64,000 nucleotides of DNA from a virus, in IMG/VR virus record IMGVR_UViG_3300046328_000321, positions 1 through 64,000 of that record. The stretch is one strand, 5' to 3'. Under the pieces are notes generated by a model. The model was not told the DNA's origin, did not search any database, and worked only from the letters and a program-made list of their open reading frames with translations. This document shows positions 8,901-63,889 of this stretch, piece after piece (within the stretch, counting starts at the first letter, position 1; the number at the start of each line of letters is the position of its first letter). A program made the position numbers and the translations under genes.

Positions 8901-9943
8901 AACTGAGCATTACTACCACCCATCTGACTGTTCATGTCCATACCCATCTCAACCATCTCTATACCAGAGACACCTTGTTGGATACCTTCAGATATTTCAG
9001 AAACTTTTTGACCAATATAAGGTGTCAATCTGTTGAAGAAGTTATCAACAAAGTTATTTTTACCAAATAACTTATCAGCTATTTTACCTGTAGTACGTTT
9101 AGCAAGTTCTTCTCTAAACAACTCATTCTTATGTATCTTTAAGAATTCAGGTAAAGCTGTATTCTTAGCAATTATATCGAACTGTTTGGTTGTAACTTCT
9201 TGATACTTACGACTATAGTCAACCAATTCTTTCTGAACAAAGAATGAGCGCATTTGTAACTCTAAACTTTTCTTTTGAAAAGCCTGAGTGATATTATCAT
9301 TGTAACTGGTTAGTCTGGCAATGTTATCATGGATACCACCTAACACACCAATCTCAGAATCAAAACGTTTCTTTTCAACACCTTCTCTGATGTTGTTTTG
9401 AGCGTTTTGCCTAGCTGTTATTTGACCCTGTACCTCCTGATTGGCCGCAAAGACTCCAGCGATAGTGCTTTGGATACTTTGCTCAAGTTGGTTATCACCG
9501 GATCCATTACTTATCTGATCTTTACCACCCGTGGCCTCAAGAAACTTATCGGTCATTCTTCGAAAGAAACCGTCTTCTTGAGGTACAAGCTTATCTATCT
9601 TTTTACCTAAGCTATTCAGCTGAGGTTTTAATTCCCGGATAGTTTCATCATATAGCCTGGTAGACCTACTGATAACTTTATCCGCTGTGGTAAAACTAGC
9701 ACCGTAAGACTCTGGCAGTACCTTTTCAAGTGTATCTGTCAGAAATTGAGGACTAGATAATTCACTGGCTGCTCCAGAGATAGTACCTTTGAATACCTCA
9801 GTAACAGGATTTCTGTTTTTAGGTTGTTGAGATTCAGGTGATAATTCACCTGAAAGATCATCCATACCAAAGTCATCTAAATCGAGATCGTCATCTAAAT
9901 CAAATTCATCTCGTTTTAGTTTTTTCTTAACGTCTTTAGCCAT
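2933..9943 (-). CDS. Tape-measure/tail-associated lysin (phiKZ gp181-like) with internal S74-like, M15 peptidase and lytic transglycosylase domains
   Basis: 2336 aa; SLT motif IESNMNPDAKNPRSSATGLFQF; M15 motifs SLHEFGLAMD and EPWH; divergent from the RNAP beta' gene as in phiKZ. Confidence 0.85.
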   Translation of the reverse strand: MAKDVKKKLKRDEFDLDDDLDLDDFGMDDLSGELSPESQQPKNRNPVTEVFKGTISGAASELSSPQFLTDTLEKVLPESYGASFTTADKVISRSTRLYDETIRELKPQLNSLGKKIDKLVPQEDGFFRRMTDKFLEATGGKDQISNGSGDNQLEQSIQSTIAGVFAANQEVQGQITARQNAQNNIREGVEKKRFDSEIGVLGGIHDNIARLTSYNDNITQAFQKKSLELQMRSFFVQKELVDYSRKYQEVTTKQFDIIAKNTALPEFLKIHKNELFREELAKRTTGKIADKLFGKNNFVDNFFNRLTPYIGQKVSEISEGIQQGVSGIEMVEMGMDMNSQMGGSNAQFFGEQLGAMGINSLRNLLTPELRKQLEKEFPDLKMTGEKWQSMIANPYKYIDKLKKSQDMKNGLQSNNFFKRFLFETFDEILDMGNKTGPEDRLNAKKLFASDVPGAKAQSDSSMLLSVTEIIPGYLSRIHQELRMTRTQGRNSSLLVYDQVKGEFKTQSDLDAEIQNSIKEAVENRSYGFNRTIADITDKILGEDADEAEREEFKQFLADFATGKNNNTSLDSIIEDDDFKKMSSSTRAKVAESIFRKMEAEGNRDRFKASTAFTNEIDSIRGATPDVQDVISKYLEAGQDKALINAGIIKMNSDGKYTVVMDKYLKFIKDTTAAQRIATSDVNTKTNISKYDGRVIPGFNGRSILSSMKNVPIFNWNYKQGLGEDSNSPKIGPMAQDVKRNLGEEAAPDGRKIDLVTMNGMNMAAIQEVNQKVDDLSKLKSGDMDGLKEMAGTQTEYLRLISEHTKTSLDKLDALGKLTILSIPGLTIDKNFFGSFGDSAVTAGRLVKDAVLGTGRFGLSLAGKVTKGTLSTIGTGVNKIYESRDKIDKTVRTVGNLGKDLIMNVGEMGYKGLERITSSVFKGAGAVLGIVRDVFIDADIYVKGEAMPKIKKILAESGEYYDKASGTVIKKYSDIKGEVVDKAGNIILSNADIIRGLVDIKGRSIKSSLRNLYTGGKTIVKFGAKVLGAVASGAWQLANKAFKSFDTSNLGIGFGNKKILDTLNEIKDILKNWGKKKKRKGEKDSETTEQVVKEGTNTGGTEKSFSALRKLFDDTDQGKQAKGLLSKVGGYFGIGDQKTTTEQDKKPVKKEKDTREERLANIAKRKEERKTIKEQAKFQEEFVGPQPGEEKFSFSKKYSEFKDKYFKSKDKTEDKKETENKPGSIRQYLRSKAESAEKHVQEKLQAYQAHKESFIGPMPDKKSLTGKALGFLGSMSKSVKDKIIEGKERVGAIKDQLDEKASEKIAIPGKADKGSRLERMARIAAKRGQKAKEKLNDKDGGGNRDGSWLDRLTKMRNGVEAGNGKVTQSKKSKDAAEPDMTVKYKEGSMLKGIIDKLGILISGAGSLVGGVWSLVKDVGFISKFLDKGIFTLGTAAVTNLPTIAKALPAITGVLAAGTMGSTFGAIAAVGGTAMTLLLSPPVLAAMVIGATAYGTYKGYEYLTRNNLSKYELYRVHQYGLNNEPKHAQNHYKMIELENMLLDKHVVVSGNDVKINTSLEWKDVASIFGVSEENKEQTQKLQTWFKDRFKFFFINHLRVLNSIRKGSPLNKIEKLKPEERKKYLELTAFDDGPHDANVSPINEIPTLSDNRELVRSVIKTLIAKVSDEIKMPMSETDAMGNNTGHTDEKVSKKHTPMLPTPEEKNIIKPKKPISVDPNILGSEDGKVNDKAGAVSNQTGAVGGVKTPPLANGAMRDGSTGMQYISLKTGVNIENMNPEMYKNLLAMAQEYGEITGKKITINDAYRSYAKQAEIYRRNPGTSAPPGKSLHEFGLAMDIDRGIMAELEKMGLTKKYGFTRPVGSEPWHVEPAGIQLSLTGSIKDPDTATNLIQYGVGRGGGGYGTIMQGGLKGRNYDMARALLEATTTGTINNQLTENEISLVNKTMNTSKTDDKTTTTKETKTPIKENVSIGDIGIHDAMGNFTGMYGESSIKVAKDATSTILKYSEDGKLTNSEDSGSTDIGSIIEKAASQTGVDAKTLKTFATIESNMNPDAKNPRSSATGLFQFTRDTWREQLRKHGKKYSLGDVSPTDPRASSLLAAEYIKSNIEILKKVKENPDDLDLYLAHFLGVNGASRFLSTHPNVPGSQLFPAAASSNKEIFFEGRRPRTLAEIYEIFKKKVVKAGGKVAGMLKPKQEANVPVAKVLTDSGSTTIEQSYGPISNSAGFQNTSYQQDVPQKKSFTTFQQAPDLQTASKPVADASKNIGVDLNTVNSNLGDSLNVQKQMLEVLSKIHGLMSNRSGSGEKSTPVQETPSTGRIPNAGKEILPNPALDLRRRAT

Positions 9944-9985
9944 TTTTTGGTAATCCTTATTAGGCTGATTAATTTCATAGGATCA

Positions 9986-12492
9986 ATGATGCCATCTTCT
10001 TCTCTACCCTTTAATTTAGATCTGCTAAACCTCACAGATATAGATATCAGAAGTCTACGACCTGTAAAAGTATTGGATATCACTGATGGTCTTAGTAAAA
10101 ACTTTCACCCTGATGGATTGTTCAGCACAGAAACATTTGGGATGATTGGTGAAGAGAAAAGAAATCGGATGTTCTCTTTTATAGAATTACATATACAAAT
10201 TCTTCACCCTATTGTTTTTAAAGCTGTGTATGATCTAAAAAGTCTATATGGTGACATCATGTCATCCAAAGGGTATGCTATTTTCGATCCTCAACTTAAG
10301 GACTTTGTTAAATCAGATCCTGTTGAAGGTAAAACAGGTTTTGATTTCTTTATTAAACATTTCAAAGAAATCAAATTTGAAGAAAGACCTTCTCCCAGAC
10401 GAGAGTTTAACATCAAGTTGGTGAATAAATATAGAGAAAAGGCACTGATCGATAAATTTGTAGTTATGCCTGCTGGGTTAAGAGACTACACTTTAGATGA
10501 GAATAACCAACCCAGCGAAGATGAAATCAATACTTTATATAGGAAGGTATTATCTTTAGCCGGTGTGATCGGTACAGTGGACTCTAAACTAAATGCTGAA
10601 TATTTTAACAATATGAGGTTTCAGTTACAGATTGCTTGTAACGAGATTTTTGAATATATTAAGAACTTGCTTGAAGGTAAAAGTAAACTTGTTCTAGGTA
10701 AATGGGCTGGAAGAAAAACTTTTCACTCTACTAGAAATGTGATTACTTCTTACGTAAGTAAAAACAAGAAACTATTTGGTCCTAATCATGTCTCTACCAA
10801 CCAGACTGTAGTTGGTCTTTATCAGTTTCTTAGAGCCACGTTACCTCTGTCTATTAAGAATGTCAGAGATGGTTACATGACTAAAGTATTTTCAGGTCCC
10901 AATACACCTATGATGTTAACGGATAAAAAAACACTAAAGAAAGTCATAGTACCCATTGATGGTAAGGAATACGATAAGTGGATGACCAATGAAGGTTTAG
11001 AGAAAGTGTTTGCTACTTACGGTCAAGAAAACTTAAGACACGATCATGTTGAAATAGCTGGTCATTATGCAGGACTTATTTTTAAAGGTAAGGATAATAC
11101 ATATCGTTTTCTACAAGACATAGATGAGTTACCTGAAAGATACAATAAAGAAGATGTATCGCCCATCACAGTGACAGAACTCATTATGTTAAGTGTTTAT
11201 GAAGGTTCCAGTGAAATACCTTGTTTTGTTACTCGTTATCCTGTCACAGGTTACGGCAGTATCTATCCAAGTTATGTTTATTTGAAATCTACGGTAGAGA
11301 ATGAAATTAGAATTTTGTTAGATGATAATTGGGAACCAACAGAACAAACATGTGCAGAATTTCCTACACCAGGTAGTGGTTTTTTTAATTCTTTCTCTGT
11401 GAGTAGTTCTCATTTAGGAAGATTGGGAGCTGATAAGAAGCAGTTTTTGGATATTTAAATTTGCTCTTTTACCTATAATGCGGTTTAATTAACGTTATGG
11501 TGAAAAGCATGTTTAAAAGATTTTTCCACACAGTTTTTTTGATTTACAACATTAACTGATGTGGAAAAAGCTTGAGATTGGTAATCTCATAAACAAAATT
11601 TGTTATGTCCTCTTAGGTAGTAATATCTAAAGAGTTTTTTCTTGAATTGCTAGAAAGCCTTTAGAGCTTTGTTAACCACTGCGAGACGAAAGTCAAAGCC
11701 AAGGTTTGAAAATAACAGAGATTAGGTAATCAGCAGCTAAGACGCTAAAGTCAGTTGTGAAATTGATCATGCGTAAAGTTCAACGACTAACCCTTAAGCA
11801 AGGTGTAGGAGATAGTATCTCCGAAGTGGGAAACACCCTACTGTTCTACAGAGGGTGAAGATATAGTCTGCTCCTTTGGGAAAGCCAAAGGCGGGTGTCA
11901 AAGCACACCGGGTTACTTTATGATAGGCTTGATGCCGAACGACTGTAACTGGACAATAGGTTCGATAAACGTGAATACTGATTCACAACTGTCGCCTGTG
12001 GAGGAAATACCACAGTGATAACTTCTTGAATTGCTGGGAACTCTTGTTAGACTGTTGAACTAAAGCGGAGTGTGAAAACACATACGTCTATGTTTGAAAA
12101 TCAGCAGGTAGAGACAATCAGCAGCTAAGCTCCTTTAAACTGGAGAAAGTTCAACGACCATCTCAGAAATGAGAGTAGGATCTAGTAGGTCCGAAGTGGG
12201 AAGCATCTAAACAGGTAAAGCTGAAGATGGTGATATGGTCTGTTCCTGTATGAGAATACAGGCGGGTGTCGAAGCATACCGGGTGTAAAGGGTAGGCTAT
12301 TATAGCTGAGCGGTTACATCGGACAACAAGGGTGACACGATGTCTTTGGTCTGTGTGATGAGTGAAGAATCCAAAGCAGAGATCAAAGACAAATTAAATT
12401 CTAGAAATTATTATATCGGAGTTAACAACAAGATGAATTTCAGTGGTAATGACGACATTTTGGATTTGACCTTGGCCAACATGACGAGTTAA
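9986..12492 (+). CDS. Virion RNA polymerase beta'-like catalytic subunit (phiKZ gp180-like); spliced exons 9986-11434, 11961-11966, 12331-12492 (~538 aa)
   Basis: DGLFSTETFG, TRYP motifs; joining the three exons restores LGAD-FD-GDTMSL, the DxDGD Mg-binding motif. Confidence 0.92.
11435..11960 (+). mobile_element. Group I intron 1 (no intact homing endonuclease)
   Basis: Upstream exon ends in T, intron ends in G; core motifs P gaattgctagaaa, Q aatcagcagc, R gttcaacgacta, S aagatatagtct; P7.1/P7.2 hairpins (IA-like). Confidence 0.9.
11961..11966 (+). other. 6-nt micro-exon TTCGAT (Phe-Asp of DFDGD)
   Basis: Lies exactly between the terminal G of intron 1 (ggacaatagG) and the start of intron 2; supplies the missing FD in frame. 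Confidence 0.88.
11967..12330 (+). mobile_element. Group I intron 2 (ORF-less)
   Basis: P gaattgctgggaa, Q aatcagcagc, R gttcaacgacca, S gatatggtct (P7 GACCA/TGGTC covaries with GACTA/TAGTC of the other introns); IGS GTCG pairs exon CGAT with a U.G wobble; ends ggacaacaaG before GGT GAC. Confidence 0.92.
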
Positions 12493-12496
12493 AAAT

Positions 12497-15400
12497 ATGC
12501 AAAAACTTTTTAGTCTTTTTTACAGAGAAGTAGGAGCTCGAAGAATACAAAACTTGGCCAGTCCTAAGTTGATAGACTTCAATAGCTTTCCTCGTAACTC
12601 TGTTTACCATTGTTTACAGCAGAATGACGCCAGAGATTTAGATGTATCTAAATTGTATTATAAAGGTTATAAGTCCAAGATCGCTGTGGACTATGTCATA
12701 GAAACCAATTATACAGAAGGCGGAGCTAAAAGAATTTCTTTTGTGCTCAAGAACGCTATTCGTATGTTTCATACTAAGAACAAACAATTTCAATACAGAC
12801 CAGATGCTATTTCCTTTGTAAAGGATAGTGGTGTATTGTTGGTGCAAAACTATAACTATCTGAATCAGTCTTATCGATACATGGACATGGCTTTAACGCC
12901 TTACTATATTTTTAAGAATCAATACAGCACGGTCTTGAAAACTATAGCTGATCAGATTAATAAATCTGATCGTCAGCATTTCATCTTCATAGATGTTCCC
13001 AGAGAAATACCTGCTGTTAGTTTTCTAGAACAATTTTCTAGAAATAAAGTCACAGCAGGTATGCTGTCTTTGTTCAACTCTGTGGAAAAGCTTTTAATTT
13101 TAGAACTCTATAAGTGGTTGGATAAAGAACATAGTGAAAATAGTATTTTTTCTATACTCAAAGACAAACAATTGGGCATGGTGAACTTGGTGTTCTTTAA
13201 TAAGAACGGAAAAGCTTCTGTGCTTAATTTAGGTTATATGTTCAGCTGGATCAAAGGTCATCAGAATATCATAGGCTTCACAGACACTGTACAACTTGAA
13301 GATACTCAATTACAGAGATTGTTTTTGAAGTTTCTTTTGGATATTAATACAGGCGACGATGCTGTAGAGATAGAAATACCTACCATAGATAGCATTGATC
13401 ATCCCAGAAACGAATCTGATTTGGATGAGTTTGAAGAATCTGAAACTAATTTTCCAGTCTCTGATGCTTTTATACATGGTGTCAGTAAAGATAAAAGTAA
13501 AGAAACTGTTTACAAAACTGCTGAGGTGTCTGACGATATAGACGATGGTTTAGAACAAACAGAAGATTTGGATATTATCTTAGCCAATATAGATCAGGAT
13601 TTAGAAGCCATAGATAAAGCACAGAAGACCAAACTCGCTAAAAAGGGTATGGTTATCACAGTCGATGGTAATCTGCAAGAGACTCATATTAAGAAAGAAG
13701 TTACAGAAGAAGAGGTAATGCTTGAGGTCTATGGAGATAAAACTTATCAAGAAAGTTTAAAAGCCTCTATAGATGCAGCTGCTGACACTGGTAGACTATC
13801 TGCTTCTGATTATAAGAAGTTGATTAAAGCTTCTCAAGAATTTGAAACGATGAGTAATCCTTACAATGGTAAAGAGTCTATCTCTGCCTCTAATAAGGTT
13901 ACAGTGGCTGATGTTACCATGAATGAAGAAGATAACATCATTATTGCGTCTGAATATCTTACAGACAAAACGATGAACCAATCTTCTTTACAAACTTTTG
14001 ATAAACAGTATATTAATACTGTTATGAAAAAAGACATGTTGATGTTGGTGTCTGGGTTACAAAAAGCTGGTGTACTTATTACCAATTATGAAATCCAAAG
14101 AGAAGTCAGTATCATGGGTAGTTATGATGTACACGAGGTGCAATTAAAACCTGTGGACGGTATGGCTTCAACCGTTAGATTCCGAGTACCTGTACCTGAT
14201 GAAAACGGAGTAATGAAAGTAGGTGGTAGCAGCTACAGTTATCGTAAACAGATTGTAGATTTACCTATACGCAAAATTGATCCTATCACGGTGGCTTTGT
14301 CGAGCTACTATGGTAAAACATTTGTGGCTGTTTCTGATAAAAAATCCAACAGTTCTTACGATTGGCTGTTGCGTAATATCTCTAAGATCAGCATCTCAGA
14401 CACACCGATTATTACAGACTTAGGTCCCGCTAATGTTTATAACAATCTGTTAAAAGCTCCGTATCTTTATAGTTTTTTATCTCAGAACTATAAAACGTTT
14501 AAGATTGAAGGTAATACGTTTATTTTTGATGAGCGTGAGCGTAACCTCATTATAGAAGATCATGCTAAGATCGAAAAAAACGGGAGTATCGTTTGTGGAT
14601 TTACAGCTAAACTTGAACCTATATTAATGTCAGAAACTGAAGAGTTTCTTATCTACAAAGCAGGTGGATATAACAACATCGGTCGTATCGAGGATATGTT
14701 AAAGTTAGACAAGACCAAAGCTCCTATAGACTTTACTGAACTTCGAGTCTTTGCCAAAACCATACCTGTAGGGGTTGTATTGGGTTACTATATTGGATTT
14801 GAGAAATTGTTAAAACTGACCAAAGCCAAGTATAGAATTATAGAAGGTCGCAAACAAAAAGATCTTCAGCAAGATGAGTATGCTCTGACCTTTGCAGATG
14901 TTTCGTATATTTTCACCAGAAATCAAAAAGTCACCAGTTTGATCATGTCTGGATTCTTGGAATATGAAAAAACATTAAAACAATACCCTGTTGAGTTATA
15001 TAACGATAAAGATGTTTATTTCAACTTGTTTGATAGTAAATCATTGTCTTCTTTATATATTAAAGAATTAGACATTTACAGGCAATTATTTATTGACGGT
15101 ATTACAAAGACCATCTTGGAACAGATGAACATGCCTGTGACATTCGAAGGATTGTTGGTAAAGTCAACTGAAATGTTGATTAATTATCATCATCCTGATA
15201 CTCAAGACATGGAACATATGCGTGTTCGCGGATATGAACGTTTGGCTGGTATAGTCTACAGTGAACTTTCGACAGCCATACGTCAGTTCAGAACCAAGAA
15301 TATATCCGGTAGAGCCAAGATTGACATGTCTCCGTTTGCCGTATGGTCGACGATCATGAAAGATCCAGCCATCAAGTTAGTAGAGGATATCAATCCTATA

Positions 15401-17369
15401 CAAAATATGAAAGAATCTGAGATCGTTACCTACGTAGGTGAAGGTGGTCGCGGTAAGGAATCTATGAACAAAGCCACCAGAGCTTATCATAGAAGTAACG
15501 TGGGTGTGGTATCTGAAGCTTCTGTAGATAGTGGGGATGTAGGTATTAACTTCTATCTCTCAGCCAATCCTAATTTTAAAGACATGCGTGGAGTCATCAA
15601 AACTGATAAAATAATGACTCCTTCATCCATGGTAACGACAGCTACTATGCTTGCACCAGGTAGCAGTAACGATGATTAACTGTATATAGTGAAAACTGTA
15701 TACGCTAGCTGTAATACGTTAAATTTTAAAACAGTCGAAAGATTCTTTCAATACAGAGTTTAGTCAGATAGTAAAGTGTTTTTCTCAGAAAAAATAAATC
15801 TGCTAAATATTACGGTAATGATAATAATGTTAAAGTAACAACTTTAAATTAGTGTCTTAATCAAAAAAAGTTAAAAGTTTCTTTTGCCAAACATAAATAT
15901 TCGTATTACAGTCAGCTAAGTCCTTTGAAAACGAAACTTTTCAAAGAATCTCTTTGAATTGCTAGAAAGCCTTTAGAGCTTTGTTAACCACTGCGAGACG
16001 AAAGTCAAAGCCAAGGTTTGAAAATAACAGAGATTAGGTAACCAGCAGCGAAGCTCCTTTAAACTGGAGAACGTTCAACGACTAGAGCCTTATCAGCTCG
16101 TAAAACCCCAAGCGGGGAAGAAGCGGAGAGCACCTTACTTTAACAGAAGGTGAAGATATAGTCTGTTCCTTTGGGAAAACCAAAGGTGGGTGTCGTTGCA
16201 CACCAGGTGTAAAAGGTAAGCTATATAGCTGAGCGCTTACATTGGACAATAAGGGTAAGAGAGTAAATTTTGTGCAAATTCAAATGTCTCATTTGATCGC
16301 CTGTAGGGATTATCATCAACCCATGGTAAGAACTGGTTATGAATATATCGTCTCGGGTAGAACAAGTGAACTCTTTGCTTGTAATGCCGATCAGGACGGT
16401 AAAGTATTGTCTGTGGATGATCGTGGTATCATTGTGCAATTTAAAGATGGTACTCAAAAGGGCATTCAACTGGGTCGCATTTACGGCAAGGCTGAAGGTA
16501 GTGTCTATCCCCATGATGTAAAAACACATTTATCACCAGGTGTTAAGTTCGTCAAAGGTGATAACTTGGCTTATAATTCTGGATTTTTTGAACAAGATAT
16601 ACTTGATCCCAAGCGTGTCGTGATGAAGAATTCCATGGTTATTAAAGTAGCTTTATCAGAAACTGCTCAAACACATGAGGACAGTTCTTCTGTTTCCCAT
16701 CGTGTATCAGGTATGGCTACTGCTAATACTACGAAAATGAAATCTGTCACAGTTTCTTTTAAACAGAATGTTCATAACGTAGTTCCATTTGGTAAAGAAA
16801 TTAAGCCTAATGACATCTTGATGGTATTGGAAGATGAAATCACTTCTACCGGACAATTTGATGAGGCGTCTTTATCGGTTCTAGCCGATTTATCAAAACA
16901 GACTATCAAGTCTAAATATGACGGTGTACTGGATAGAATTGAAGTTTATTACCACGGATCTAAAGAGGATATGAGTCCTTCTTTAAGAGCTTTAACTGAT
17001 AAAAGCGATAAGTTGATTTCATCTATTTGTAAGTCTACAGGGACTCCTGTTATTACAGGGGAGGTGAATGACGAGTATCGTGTTAGCGGTAGTAGACTCG
17101 GACTAGATAAGGCAGAAATCAAACTTTATATCACCATCGCTACTGATGTTGGTGTGGGTGATAAACTTGTGTTCGCTAATCAAATGAAGAGTGTGGTTGG
17201 TGAGGTTATGGATTATGATGTCCATACTGAAAGTGGTGAGCGTATAGATGCTATCTTTGGATTCAGGTCCATCATGGCTCGTGTCGTTAACTCTCCTTTT
17301 ATCATAGGTACCACTACTACGTTGTTAAGAAAAGTTGCTGAAAAAGCTGTCAAAGTTTATAAAGGTTAA
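12497..17369 (+). CDS. Virion RNA polymerase beta-like subunit (phiKZ gp178-like); spliced exons 12497-15676 and 16254-17369 (~1431 aa)
   Basis: Splicing gives SSNDD-GKRVNFVQIQMSH (equivalent to RpoB HDDANRALMGSNMQRQ); HEDS and GDKLVFANQMKSV RpoB-type motifs. Confidence 0.9.
15677..16253 (+). mobile_element. Group I intron 3
   Basis: Exon ends GAT, intron ends ggacaataaG; P gaattgctagaaa, Q aaccagcagc, R gttcaacgacta, S aagatatagtct. Confidence 0.92.
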
Positions 17370-63559: not shown

Positions 63560-63889
63560 GGCCCGCTGATGAAATTGGTAGACATAACGGAAAACCAGAA
63601 AGTTAGTCCGCCTTTACTAGTAATAGTAAAGTAAACTGTGGGTGAACTCAGGAGAATCTAAAGCGCAAGCCATGATAATCGTGAGCCAAGCTAGAAGTAC
63701 ACTTCTAGAAGGTGCAGAGACTACTGGAAAGGTAAAGTCCTTTTAATAACCAGCTAGAGCGCCCACTACCGTAATAGAATTTCTATCGGTAAAGAGATAG
63801 TCCATGTCCATTGGAAACTTTGGAACACATGCTTAAAATCCGTCGCTTCCGAAAGGAGCATTCCGGTTCGATTCCGGAGCGGGCCACCA
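63560..63889 (+). tRNA. trnL: tRNA-Leu(UAA), intron-containing (exons 63560-63591 and 63832-63889)
   Basis: Acceptor GGCCCGC/GCGGGCC, anticodon stem ACGGA/TCCGT with loop CTTAAAA, long variable arm, T-arm TCCGG-TTCGATT-CCGGA, A73 and encoded CCA. Confidence 0.88.
63592..63831 (+). mobile_element. Group I intron in tRNA-Leu
   Basis: P3 gtgggtg/cgcccac, P gaactcaggagaa, Q aatcgtgagc, R gtgcagagacta, S aagagatagtcc; terminal G at 63831. Confidence 0.85.

Follow-up and report, generated by a model that had tools for sequence, protein, structure and literature searches.

Two putative group I introns six bases apart in a phage RNA polymerase gene

We analyzed positions 1-64,000 of IMG/VR record IMGVR_UViG_3300046328_000321, a metagenome fragment (43% complete) of an uncultured phiKZ-like jumbo (giant) phage. 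Here, "the window" means this whole stretch of 64,000 nucleotides (nt), to which all window coordinates refer. A gene on its plus strand (9986-12492) encodes, to judge by its sequence, the phiKZ gp180 homologue, which in the virion RNA polymerase is the N-terminal beta'-like catalytic subunit. We conclude, with a probability of about 0.85, that two independent phage IA-type group I introns, both free of any open reading frame (ORF), settled six bases apart in the ADFDGD codons of this gene and would be spliced out to give an intact DFDGD motif. The feature is, as we read the sequences, conserved, and it shows a familiar tendency of mobile introns in a particularly compact form.

Exon 1 (9986-11434, plus strand) belongs to an ORF that is open from 9947 and has its likely start at ATG 9986. 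It ends GGA GCT GAT (...LGAD); this GAT (11432-11434), which keeps the frame of that ORF, encodes the first catalytic Asp, and an in-frame TAA comes next at 11456-11458. Intron 1 (11435-11960, plus strand; 526 nt) occupies the site AD/FD, between Asp1 and Phe (a slash marks a point of insertion). The micro-exon TTCGAT (11961-11966, plus strand) follows and codes for Phe and the second catalytic Asp. Intron 2 (11967-12330, plus strand; 364 nt) lies at FD/GD, between Asp2 and Gly. Exon 3 (12331-12492, plus strand; GDTMSLVCVMSEES...ANMTS and a stop) begins GGT GAC ACG ATG and holds the third catalytic Asp; GGTGACACG begins at 12331 and is in frame until TAA 12490-12492. In this layout the three catalytic Asp codons are distributed over three exons. 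A preliminary description of this DNA had proposed these exons, introns and junctions, and every base it named holds on re-reading 11100-12700, including the U at the end of each upstream exon (U11434, U11966) and the terminal G of each intron (G11960, G12330) on which it had based its appeal to the group I junction rule.

Is the double splice the only one that restores the catalytic motif? The exon 1 protein matches PHROG 2986, which is annotated as RNA polymerase beta subunit, at E 7e-167 over profile positions 4-484. The exon 3 protein aligns to positions 487-539 of the same profile, so exactly two positions are left unfilled, and the Phe-Asp of the micro-exon fills them. The gene has the two marks of a multisubunit RNA polymerase beta' of the phiKZ gp180 type, a PHROG 2986 match and ADFDGD, the latter only after the double splice. 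The spliced RNA junction would read GCUGAU-UUCGAU-GGUGAC, and the product would be a protein of 538 amino acids (aa) with an intact DFDGD (joined sequence ...SSHLGRLGADFDGDTMSL...; peptide across the joined junction, LGADFDGDTMSL). No other joining of exon 1, TTCGAT and exon 3 restores the motif. At the equivalent place, three genes without an intron, from Ralstonia phage RP31, Bacillus phage AgentSmith and Burkholderia phage FLC9, have the sequence ...LG(R/K)LGADFDGDT(A/I)S..., with a similar length to the end of the protein. This alignment and the PHROG arithmetic bear out the earlier claim that only the double splice gives LGADFDGDT.

The surroundings of the gene point to the same identity. 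By the ORF list and PHROG profiles, the gene adjoins a divergently transcribed 2,336-aa ORF (a gp181-like tail protein) and has a beta-like gene downstream. These flanks mirror phiKZ gp181, gp180 and gp178; hence, we assign the gene to the beta' N-terminal subunit of the virion polymerase. A tblastn search with the exon 1 protein returned 313 jumbo-phage records, and a near-identity DNA search of the phage collection gave no match. A promoter and terminator scan of 9800-12700 gave counts within about 2 standard deviations of those in shuffled sequences and nothing relevant to the introns.

Both intervening stretches match the Rfam group I intron model RF00028 (full model, 1-253; curated cut-off, 50 bits). 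Intron 1 matches at 11590-11890 (76.5 bits, E 1e-17) and intron 2 at 11967-12262 (63.9 bits, E 7e-14), each over the full model, and the group I cores reported earlier from the letters are thus both recovered above the cut-off. In both introns, moreover, the predicted guide helix pairs the exon-terminal U with a guide G, and removal of the stretch up to the terminal G restores the frame. Neither intron contains an ORF of at least 40 aa, and hence neither qualifies as the carrier of a homing endonuclease gene. When intron 2 was folded with its orthologues and two paralogues, the consensus had 88 pairs, 34 of them with compensatory changes on both sides; in P2, for example, CUGUGG with CCACAG in the window is replaced by ACAGAA with UUCUGU in the related contig L006. 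From the cores, the junctions, the frame and the conservation described below, we infer that both introns are self-splicing.

The core motifs UUCAACGACUA and GAAGAUAUAGUC are common to the window introns and to the phage T4 introns of td, nrdB and sunY (phage IA type). The T4 introns are likewise small and self-splicing and lie in essential phage genes at conserved codons. Unlike the tandem introns here, they occur singly in each gene and in long exon contexts. Nucleus-forming jumbo phages keep transcription and translation apart. In T4, splicing and the translation of the upstream exon are coupled (cited in PMC10914365).

Two other explanations of the layout were rejected. An assembly duplicate does not fit: introns 1 and 2 are alike over 141 nt only, at 71% identity, and the layout recurs in three independent metagenome contigs. 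Nor does a twintron (nested introns): the two introns lie side by side, each with its own P1 and terminal G, and are separated by six coding bases, which DFDGD requires.

The micro-exon and both introns are conserved in close relatives

The closest relatives are three IMG/VR contigs (L006, L007 and L008) with 80-85% protein identity. All three read GCTGAT, intron, TTCGAT, intron, GGTGAT, and each intron reaches 78-82 bits in Rfam (79-80 bits for the orthologues of intron 2). Over aligned columns, intron identity is 77-89%; intron 1 is 88-89% identical to its orthologues in L006 and L007. The micro-exon TTCGAT is identical in L006 (5856-5861), L007 (5897-5902) and L008. Its invariance may stem from the pairing of its last four bases in P1 of intron 2, and the comparison covers only three independent lineages. 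Against L006 and L007, exon 3 has a ratio of nonsynonymous to synonymous change (pN/pS) of 0.10-0.21 at a pS of 0.65-0.93, that is, with 65-93% of synonymous sites changed. Given this purifying selection on exon 3, we conclude that the C-terminal piece is read in this frame.

A search of IMG/VR with a degenerate junction pattern found 30 loci; introns were present only in the three contigs above, and the others were chance matches in coding DNA. Group I matches number nine in the genome fragment of the window and three to seven in the three close relatives. The next closest relative, a 216-kb contig at 58% identity, has zero.

Predicted guide helices and the order of splicing

We propose that each intron would fold independently and would pick its 5' splice site by a local guide helix (P1), intron 1 recognizing GAU with UGUC and intron 2 recognizing CGAU with UGUCG. 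The proposed guide (internal guide sequence) of intron 1, UGUC (11606-11609, plus strand), stands directly 5' of P2. It offers three exon base pairs, G11607.U11434 (a wobble), U11608-A11433 and C11609-G11432, and pairs U11606 with A11435. The guide of intron 2, UGUCG (11990-11994, plus strand), stands just before P2 and gave the best helix in a script search: G11991.U11966 (a wobble), U11992-A11965, C11993-G11964 and G11994-C11963, plus A11967, with one or two intron pairs. Its four exon base pairs lie wholly within the 6-nt exon, and the earlier claim that P1 of intron 2 pairs with the CGAU of the micro-exon stands at 11991-11994 and 11963-11966.

The best evidence for these predicted P1 assignments is guide-exon co-variation across the intron family. 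Paralogous introns within this genome have guides that track the exon end (GGUUGC with GCAAU, GGCAU with GUGCU, GCCAUC with GAUGGU), as (U)GUC(G) does with (C)GAU here. All orthologues of intron 2 have either UUGUCGC or CUGUCGC as their guide region. For the orthologues of intron 1 in L006 and L007, RNAfold closes GAU/AA with UUGUC around a long hairpin, and the inner helix of that hairpin, GGAUA(A/U) with (U/A)UAUCC, has a compensatory change. GUC also stands directly 5' of P2 in the AD/FD-site introns of distant phages (L007, L042, L073, L106 and phiKZ). An alternative 7-bp helix for intron 1, formed with UUUGUUA (11599-11605), is present in the window and L006 and is not found in L007. RNAalifold also offered a helix between the guide UGUC and a conserved 3' tail GACA; it has no compensatory change, is broken in two paralogues and was not used.

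Several observations weigh against our interpretation. For P1 of intron 1, the exon supplies only three base pairs, and in the window the helix would have to span about 170 nt, of which 116 nt are an insertion. There, RNAfold favors a local hairpin of GGGAGCUG with CAGUUUUU, which leaves the splice-site U unpaired. A by-eye search of guide-adjacent bases against the 3' exon found no convincing P10 for either intron, and none that was conserved among the three orthologues. Finally, an ATG (12340) lies just inside exon 3 with a Shine-Dalgarno-like AAGGG upstream, as would suit a gene split into two separately translated pieces.

The insertion itself (11442-11560, plus strand; about 116 nt) lies in the P1 loop of intron 1 and does not occur in the three related contigs. 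Because it sits where phiKZ and the relatives L069 and L088 bear an HNH ORF, it may, to go by position only, be the remnant of a lost endonuclease gene. The HNH proteins of the relatives gave no tblastn match to it, and it has no other copy in the genome stretches compared.

Must the introns be removed in a fixed order? The preliminary description held that they might, since the two ribozymes share a two-codon exon. Each P1 uses only three or four exon bases beside its own splice site, and therefore neither intron would need the other removed beforehand; the idea of an obligatory order thus finds no support. No order is readable from the base pairing, and with local P1 helices either would be possible. 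Removal of intron 1 first is the likelier course, given the order of transcription and co-transcriptional folding.

The DFDGD codons as an intron hot spot

PMC11512511 cites introns in phiKZ gp180 and gp55 from Ceyssens 2014 and Mesyanzhinov 2002. That text states the gp180 intron, in agreement with the earlier remark that single introns are known in phiKZ-family polymerase genes. Single introns in jumbo-phage polymerase genes are thus already published, and active-site codons are expected locations for introns (PMC12908238). In phiKZ, gp180 ends ...APLGAD and is followed by gp179, a group I core of 92 bits (Rfam) and a 3' exon FDGDTVSF..., which makes one intron at AD/FD. The gene is the equal of the window gene, with the same insertion point (LGAD/FDGD), a gp181-like neighbor and a guide of like kind (GUCC directly before P2 in phiKZ). 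Since the phiKZ intron stands at the identical point, we take intron 1 to be an ORF-less relative of this known intron. The phiKZ intron has the 1-kb HNH gene gp179 in its P1 loop, whereas intron 1 is without an ORF. Unlike phiKZ, the window has a second intron six bases downstream, which isolates Phe-Asp on an exon of its own.

A profile-guided search of IMG/VR provided a set of 79 relatives. The pattern D(F/Y)DGD is uninterrupted in 63 of these, and a further four (L083, L085, L095 and L110) have uninterrupted variants, HDGD, YDGD and MDGD. In three of the 63 pattern-matching relatives, plus L107, the interruption comes just 3' of DGD; in the rest it follows Asp1 or, in L045, Asp2. A single intron follows Asp1 in L042, L069, L071, L073 and L106, and a single intron follows Asp3 in L104, L089/L090 and L107. 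Introns after both Asp1 and Asp3 enclose a 12-nt exon in L044 (TTCGACGGAGAT) and L088 (TACGACGGCGAT). The combination of the Asp1 and Asp2 sites, which leaves a 6-nt exon, occurs in the window clade only. The three insertion sites (after Asp1, Asp2 and Asp3) fall within 12 bases, a GAU codon precedes every one, and the introns at the sites checked have an identical GUC guide core. HNH endonuclease genes lie inside introns of L069, L088, L089 and L107, with HNH_3 at both the AD/FD site and the site after DGD. Beyond what the preliminary description saw, the DFDGD codons are an intron hot spot across phiKZ-like phages. The preliminary description had added that each intron disrupts the homing site of the other; this is reasonable in itself and moot in the window, where both introns are without an endonuclease gene and the HNH genes belong to relatives, at neighboring sites.

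L044 (4950-5956) and L088 (4956-6860) are of unrelated lineages, and in each the 12-nt exon, FDGD or YDGD, stands between an intron after AD and one after DGD. The first intron of L088 bears an HNH gene; that of L044 scores only 32.9 bits in Rfam. In L045 (4932-5420; IMGVR_UViG_3300023440_000005), ADFD is followed by 46 nt, then GGTGAT (GD), a group-I-like intron and TISF.... GAU precedes the 46-nt piece, G is its last base, and it contains an 8-bp hairpin; its length is far below ribozyme size. The group-I-like intron downstream has no Rfam match at E 0.01. The 46-nt piece may be a core-less FD/GD-site remnant that depends on the neighboring intron, or the gene may be broken.

The same phage has a second, paralogous beta' gene outside the window (G000:C1 79059-80581; L004 3061-4581), with four tandem Rfam group I matches. 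Its predicted exons are A (long, ending ...LQRN; 381 aa; PHROG 2987 positions 1-380), B (PSL...TVRA; 102 nt; positions 381-413), C (PNAD; 12 nt), D (FDG; 9 nt) and E (DALNVS... to the stop; 55 aa; positions 422-475). By PHROG 2987 arithmetic, the seven residues PNADFDG are left between exons B and E. Like the window gene, the paralogue has an intron at the AD/FD point. Hence, on this exon layout, both polymerases of the phage have their three aspartates on three exons.

Escherichia phage Goslar (NC_048170; L119 3760-5565) is a cultured phage, and its case concerns the other polymerase gene and insertion sites different from those in the window. Its non-virion beta' is recorded as gp247, Intron_gpI HOV27_gs001, HNH gp186 and gp185. 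The gene appears to be split as ...NADF, then DGDA, CGACGGTGACGCT (13 nt), then MNNHIV.... HNH gp186 lies within a long stem of the first intron, and only one intron is annotated in the record; the second intervening stretch is group-I-like in look and below Rfam significance (E 0.001). We found no paper on a Goslar micro-exon, and our literature search found none on a micro-exon inside a phage polymerase motif.

Other introns of the window genome resemble these. In the adjacent beta-like gene, a third intron (15677-16253; Rfam 86.3 bits, match 15897-16186) follows ...GAT GAT and is followed by the 3' exon GGT AAG, the same GAU/GGU context as that of intron 2. It has about 220 extra nt near its 5' end and is 72% identical to intron 2 over 245 nt. 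A further group I match (63576-63824; 62.4 bits) lies in the tRNA region. The introns of this genome are mosaics: P4-P5 of intron 2 is near-identical to that of the third intron of the paralogue, whose P6 matches intron 1.

Perhaps the GAU codons of the three aspartates are equivalent landing sites for a single ribozyme family with a guide that reads GAU? Introns would then have spread from AD/FD to FD/GD, to the site after DGD and to GAU/GGU in the beta gene by guide-directed reverse splicing, not by endonuclease homing, and, with interchangeable 5' splice sites side by side, exon skipping would yield a tunable share of dominant-negative beta'. The GAU/AA splice sites and UGUC guides common to both introns hint at such a spread between the Asp codons, but we consider the scenario as a whole unlikely.

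Exon skipping, gene decay or a split gene

The preliminary description also saw a possible regulatory switch in the micro-exon. In regulated exon skipping, competition or cooperation between the two ribozymes would join exon 1 to exon 3 in a controlled fraction of transcripts, and the in-frame, catalytically dead LGAD-GDT subunit would act as a switch or as a dominant-negative brake. Skipping is mechanistically plausible, since both 5' splice sites are GAU/AA and both guides contain UGUC; exon 1 could be docked by the guide of intron 2 through pairing of UGAU with GUCG, at the cost of two wobbles. The cores of the two introns are homologous (71% over 141 nt), and a P7 with one strand from each is conceivable, GACUA (5' strand) from intron 1 and UGGUC (3' strand) from intron 2. 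There is also a precedent. Exon skipping is reported for orf142 of Staphylococcus phage Twort, a gene with three group I introns (Landthaler and Shub 1999, as cited by PMC11878797 and PMC3073962), and PMC3073962 describes it as skipping by similar tandem introns. Like the window gene, orf142 is a phage protein gene with several ORF-less group I introns that are related to one another; it differs in being a structural gene, as opposed to the polymerase active site here, and the precedent for skipping is Twort's. In the window and its relatives, we see no evidence of regulation. The spacing of 6, 9, 12 and 13 nt across lineages speaks for independent insertions and not for a conserved switch, most relatives are intron-free at the motif, and a dead catalytic subunit would be costly. 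We conclude that a regulatory switch is improbable and that the comparative data fit the crowding of selfish introns.

We judge it still less probable that the gene is decaying, with one or both introns no longer splicing and a pseudogene in this contig. Such decay would be in keeping with the 116-nt insertion between the splice site and the guide of intron 1, with the weak predicted P1 and with the origin of the record, a 43%-complete metagenome fragment. However, purifying selection on exon 3 is strong in three lineages, and both cores lie well above the Rfam cut-off, with helices maintained by compensatory changes. Moreover, phiKZ and its relatives have an endonuclease gene of more than 1 kb at that loop position, so a long-range P1 is normal in the lineage. 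The virion polymerase is, in addition, essential in phiKZ-like phages.

Polymerases of the phiKZ type are built of split subunits, the beta and beta' pieces being separate proteins. Nevertheless, we give almost no credence to a split gene without splicing, in which a 496-aa N-terminal product and a separate 50-aa C-terminal peptide (from ATG 12340) assemble into the enzyme. The unspliced beta' fragment would end ...LGADKKQFLDI, and the product would be without four residues of the universal DFDGD (F, D2, G and D3). Each intervening stretch, moreover, is a full group I intron, and TTCGAT lies exactly between them and fills exactly the two unfilled profile positions.

Discussion

Very small exons are known from organelles, where PMC8208691 and PMC12308204 cite 3-bp micro-exons in fungal mitochondria and a 1-nt micro-exon in placozoan cox1. 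These cases are like the window in their adjacent self-splicing introns, their exons of few bases and the high conservation of the gene. They are, however, mitochondrial, and their splicing often depends on maturases or host proteins, whereas in the window a phage mRNA would be served by two small ORF-less ribozymes, with a catalytic residue on the exon.

We favor the view that two mobile introns settled independently in the DFDGD codons, and that the arrangement would be a by-product, rather than a designed device, of such introns gathering in the best-conserved DNA that an essential gene offers. We do so because the sites and the spacing vary, endonuclease genes survive in relatives, and most genes are intron-free here. 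The history of insertion is something we infer from these comparisons.

The finding bears first on annotation. Gene callers yield a truncated ORF and a small orphan ORF from such a gene, and the catalytic motif is lost. Hence, essential jumbo-phage polymerase subunits are mis-annotated in metagenomes; the public record of Goslar has only one intron annotated, and phiKZ gp180 ends ...GAD. As to RNA biology, a six-base exon would have to be held and ligated by each of two ribozymes, and intron 2 would recognize four of its bases only. The gene would thus be a natural test of the minimum 5' exon for a group I intron and of fidelity between neighboring homologous ribozymes. For evolution, it would be a clear case of selfish introns accumulating on the least mutable codons, with both polymerases of one phage affected at one motif.

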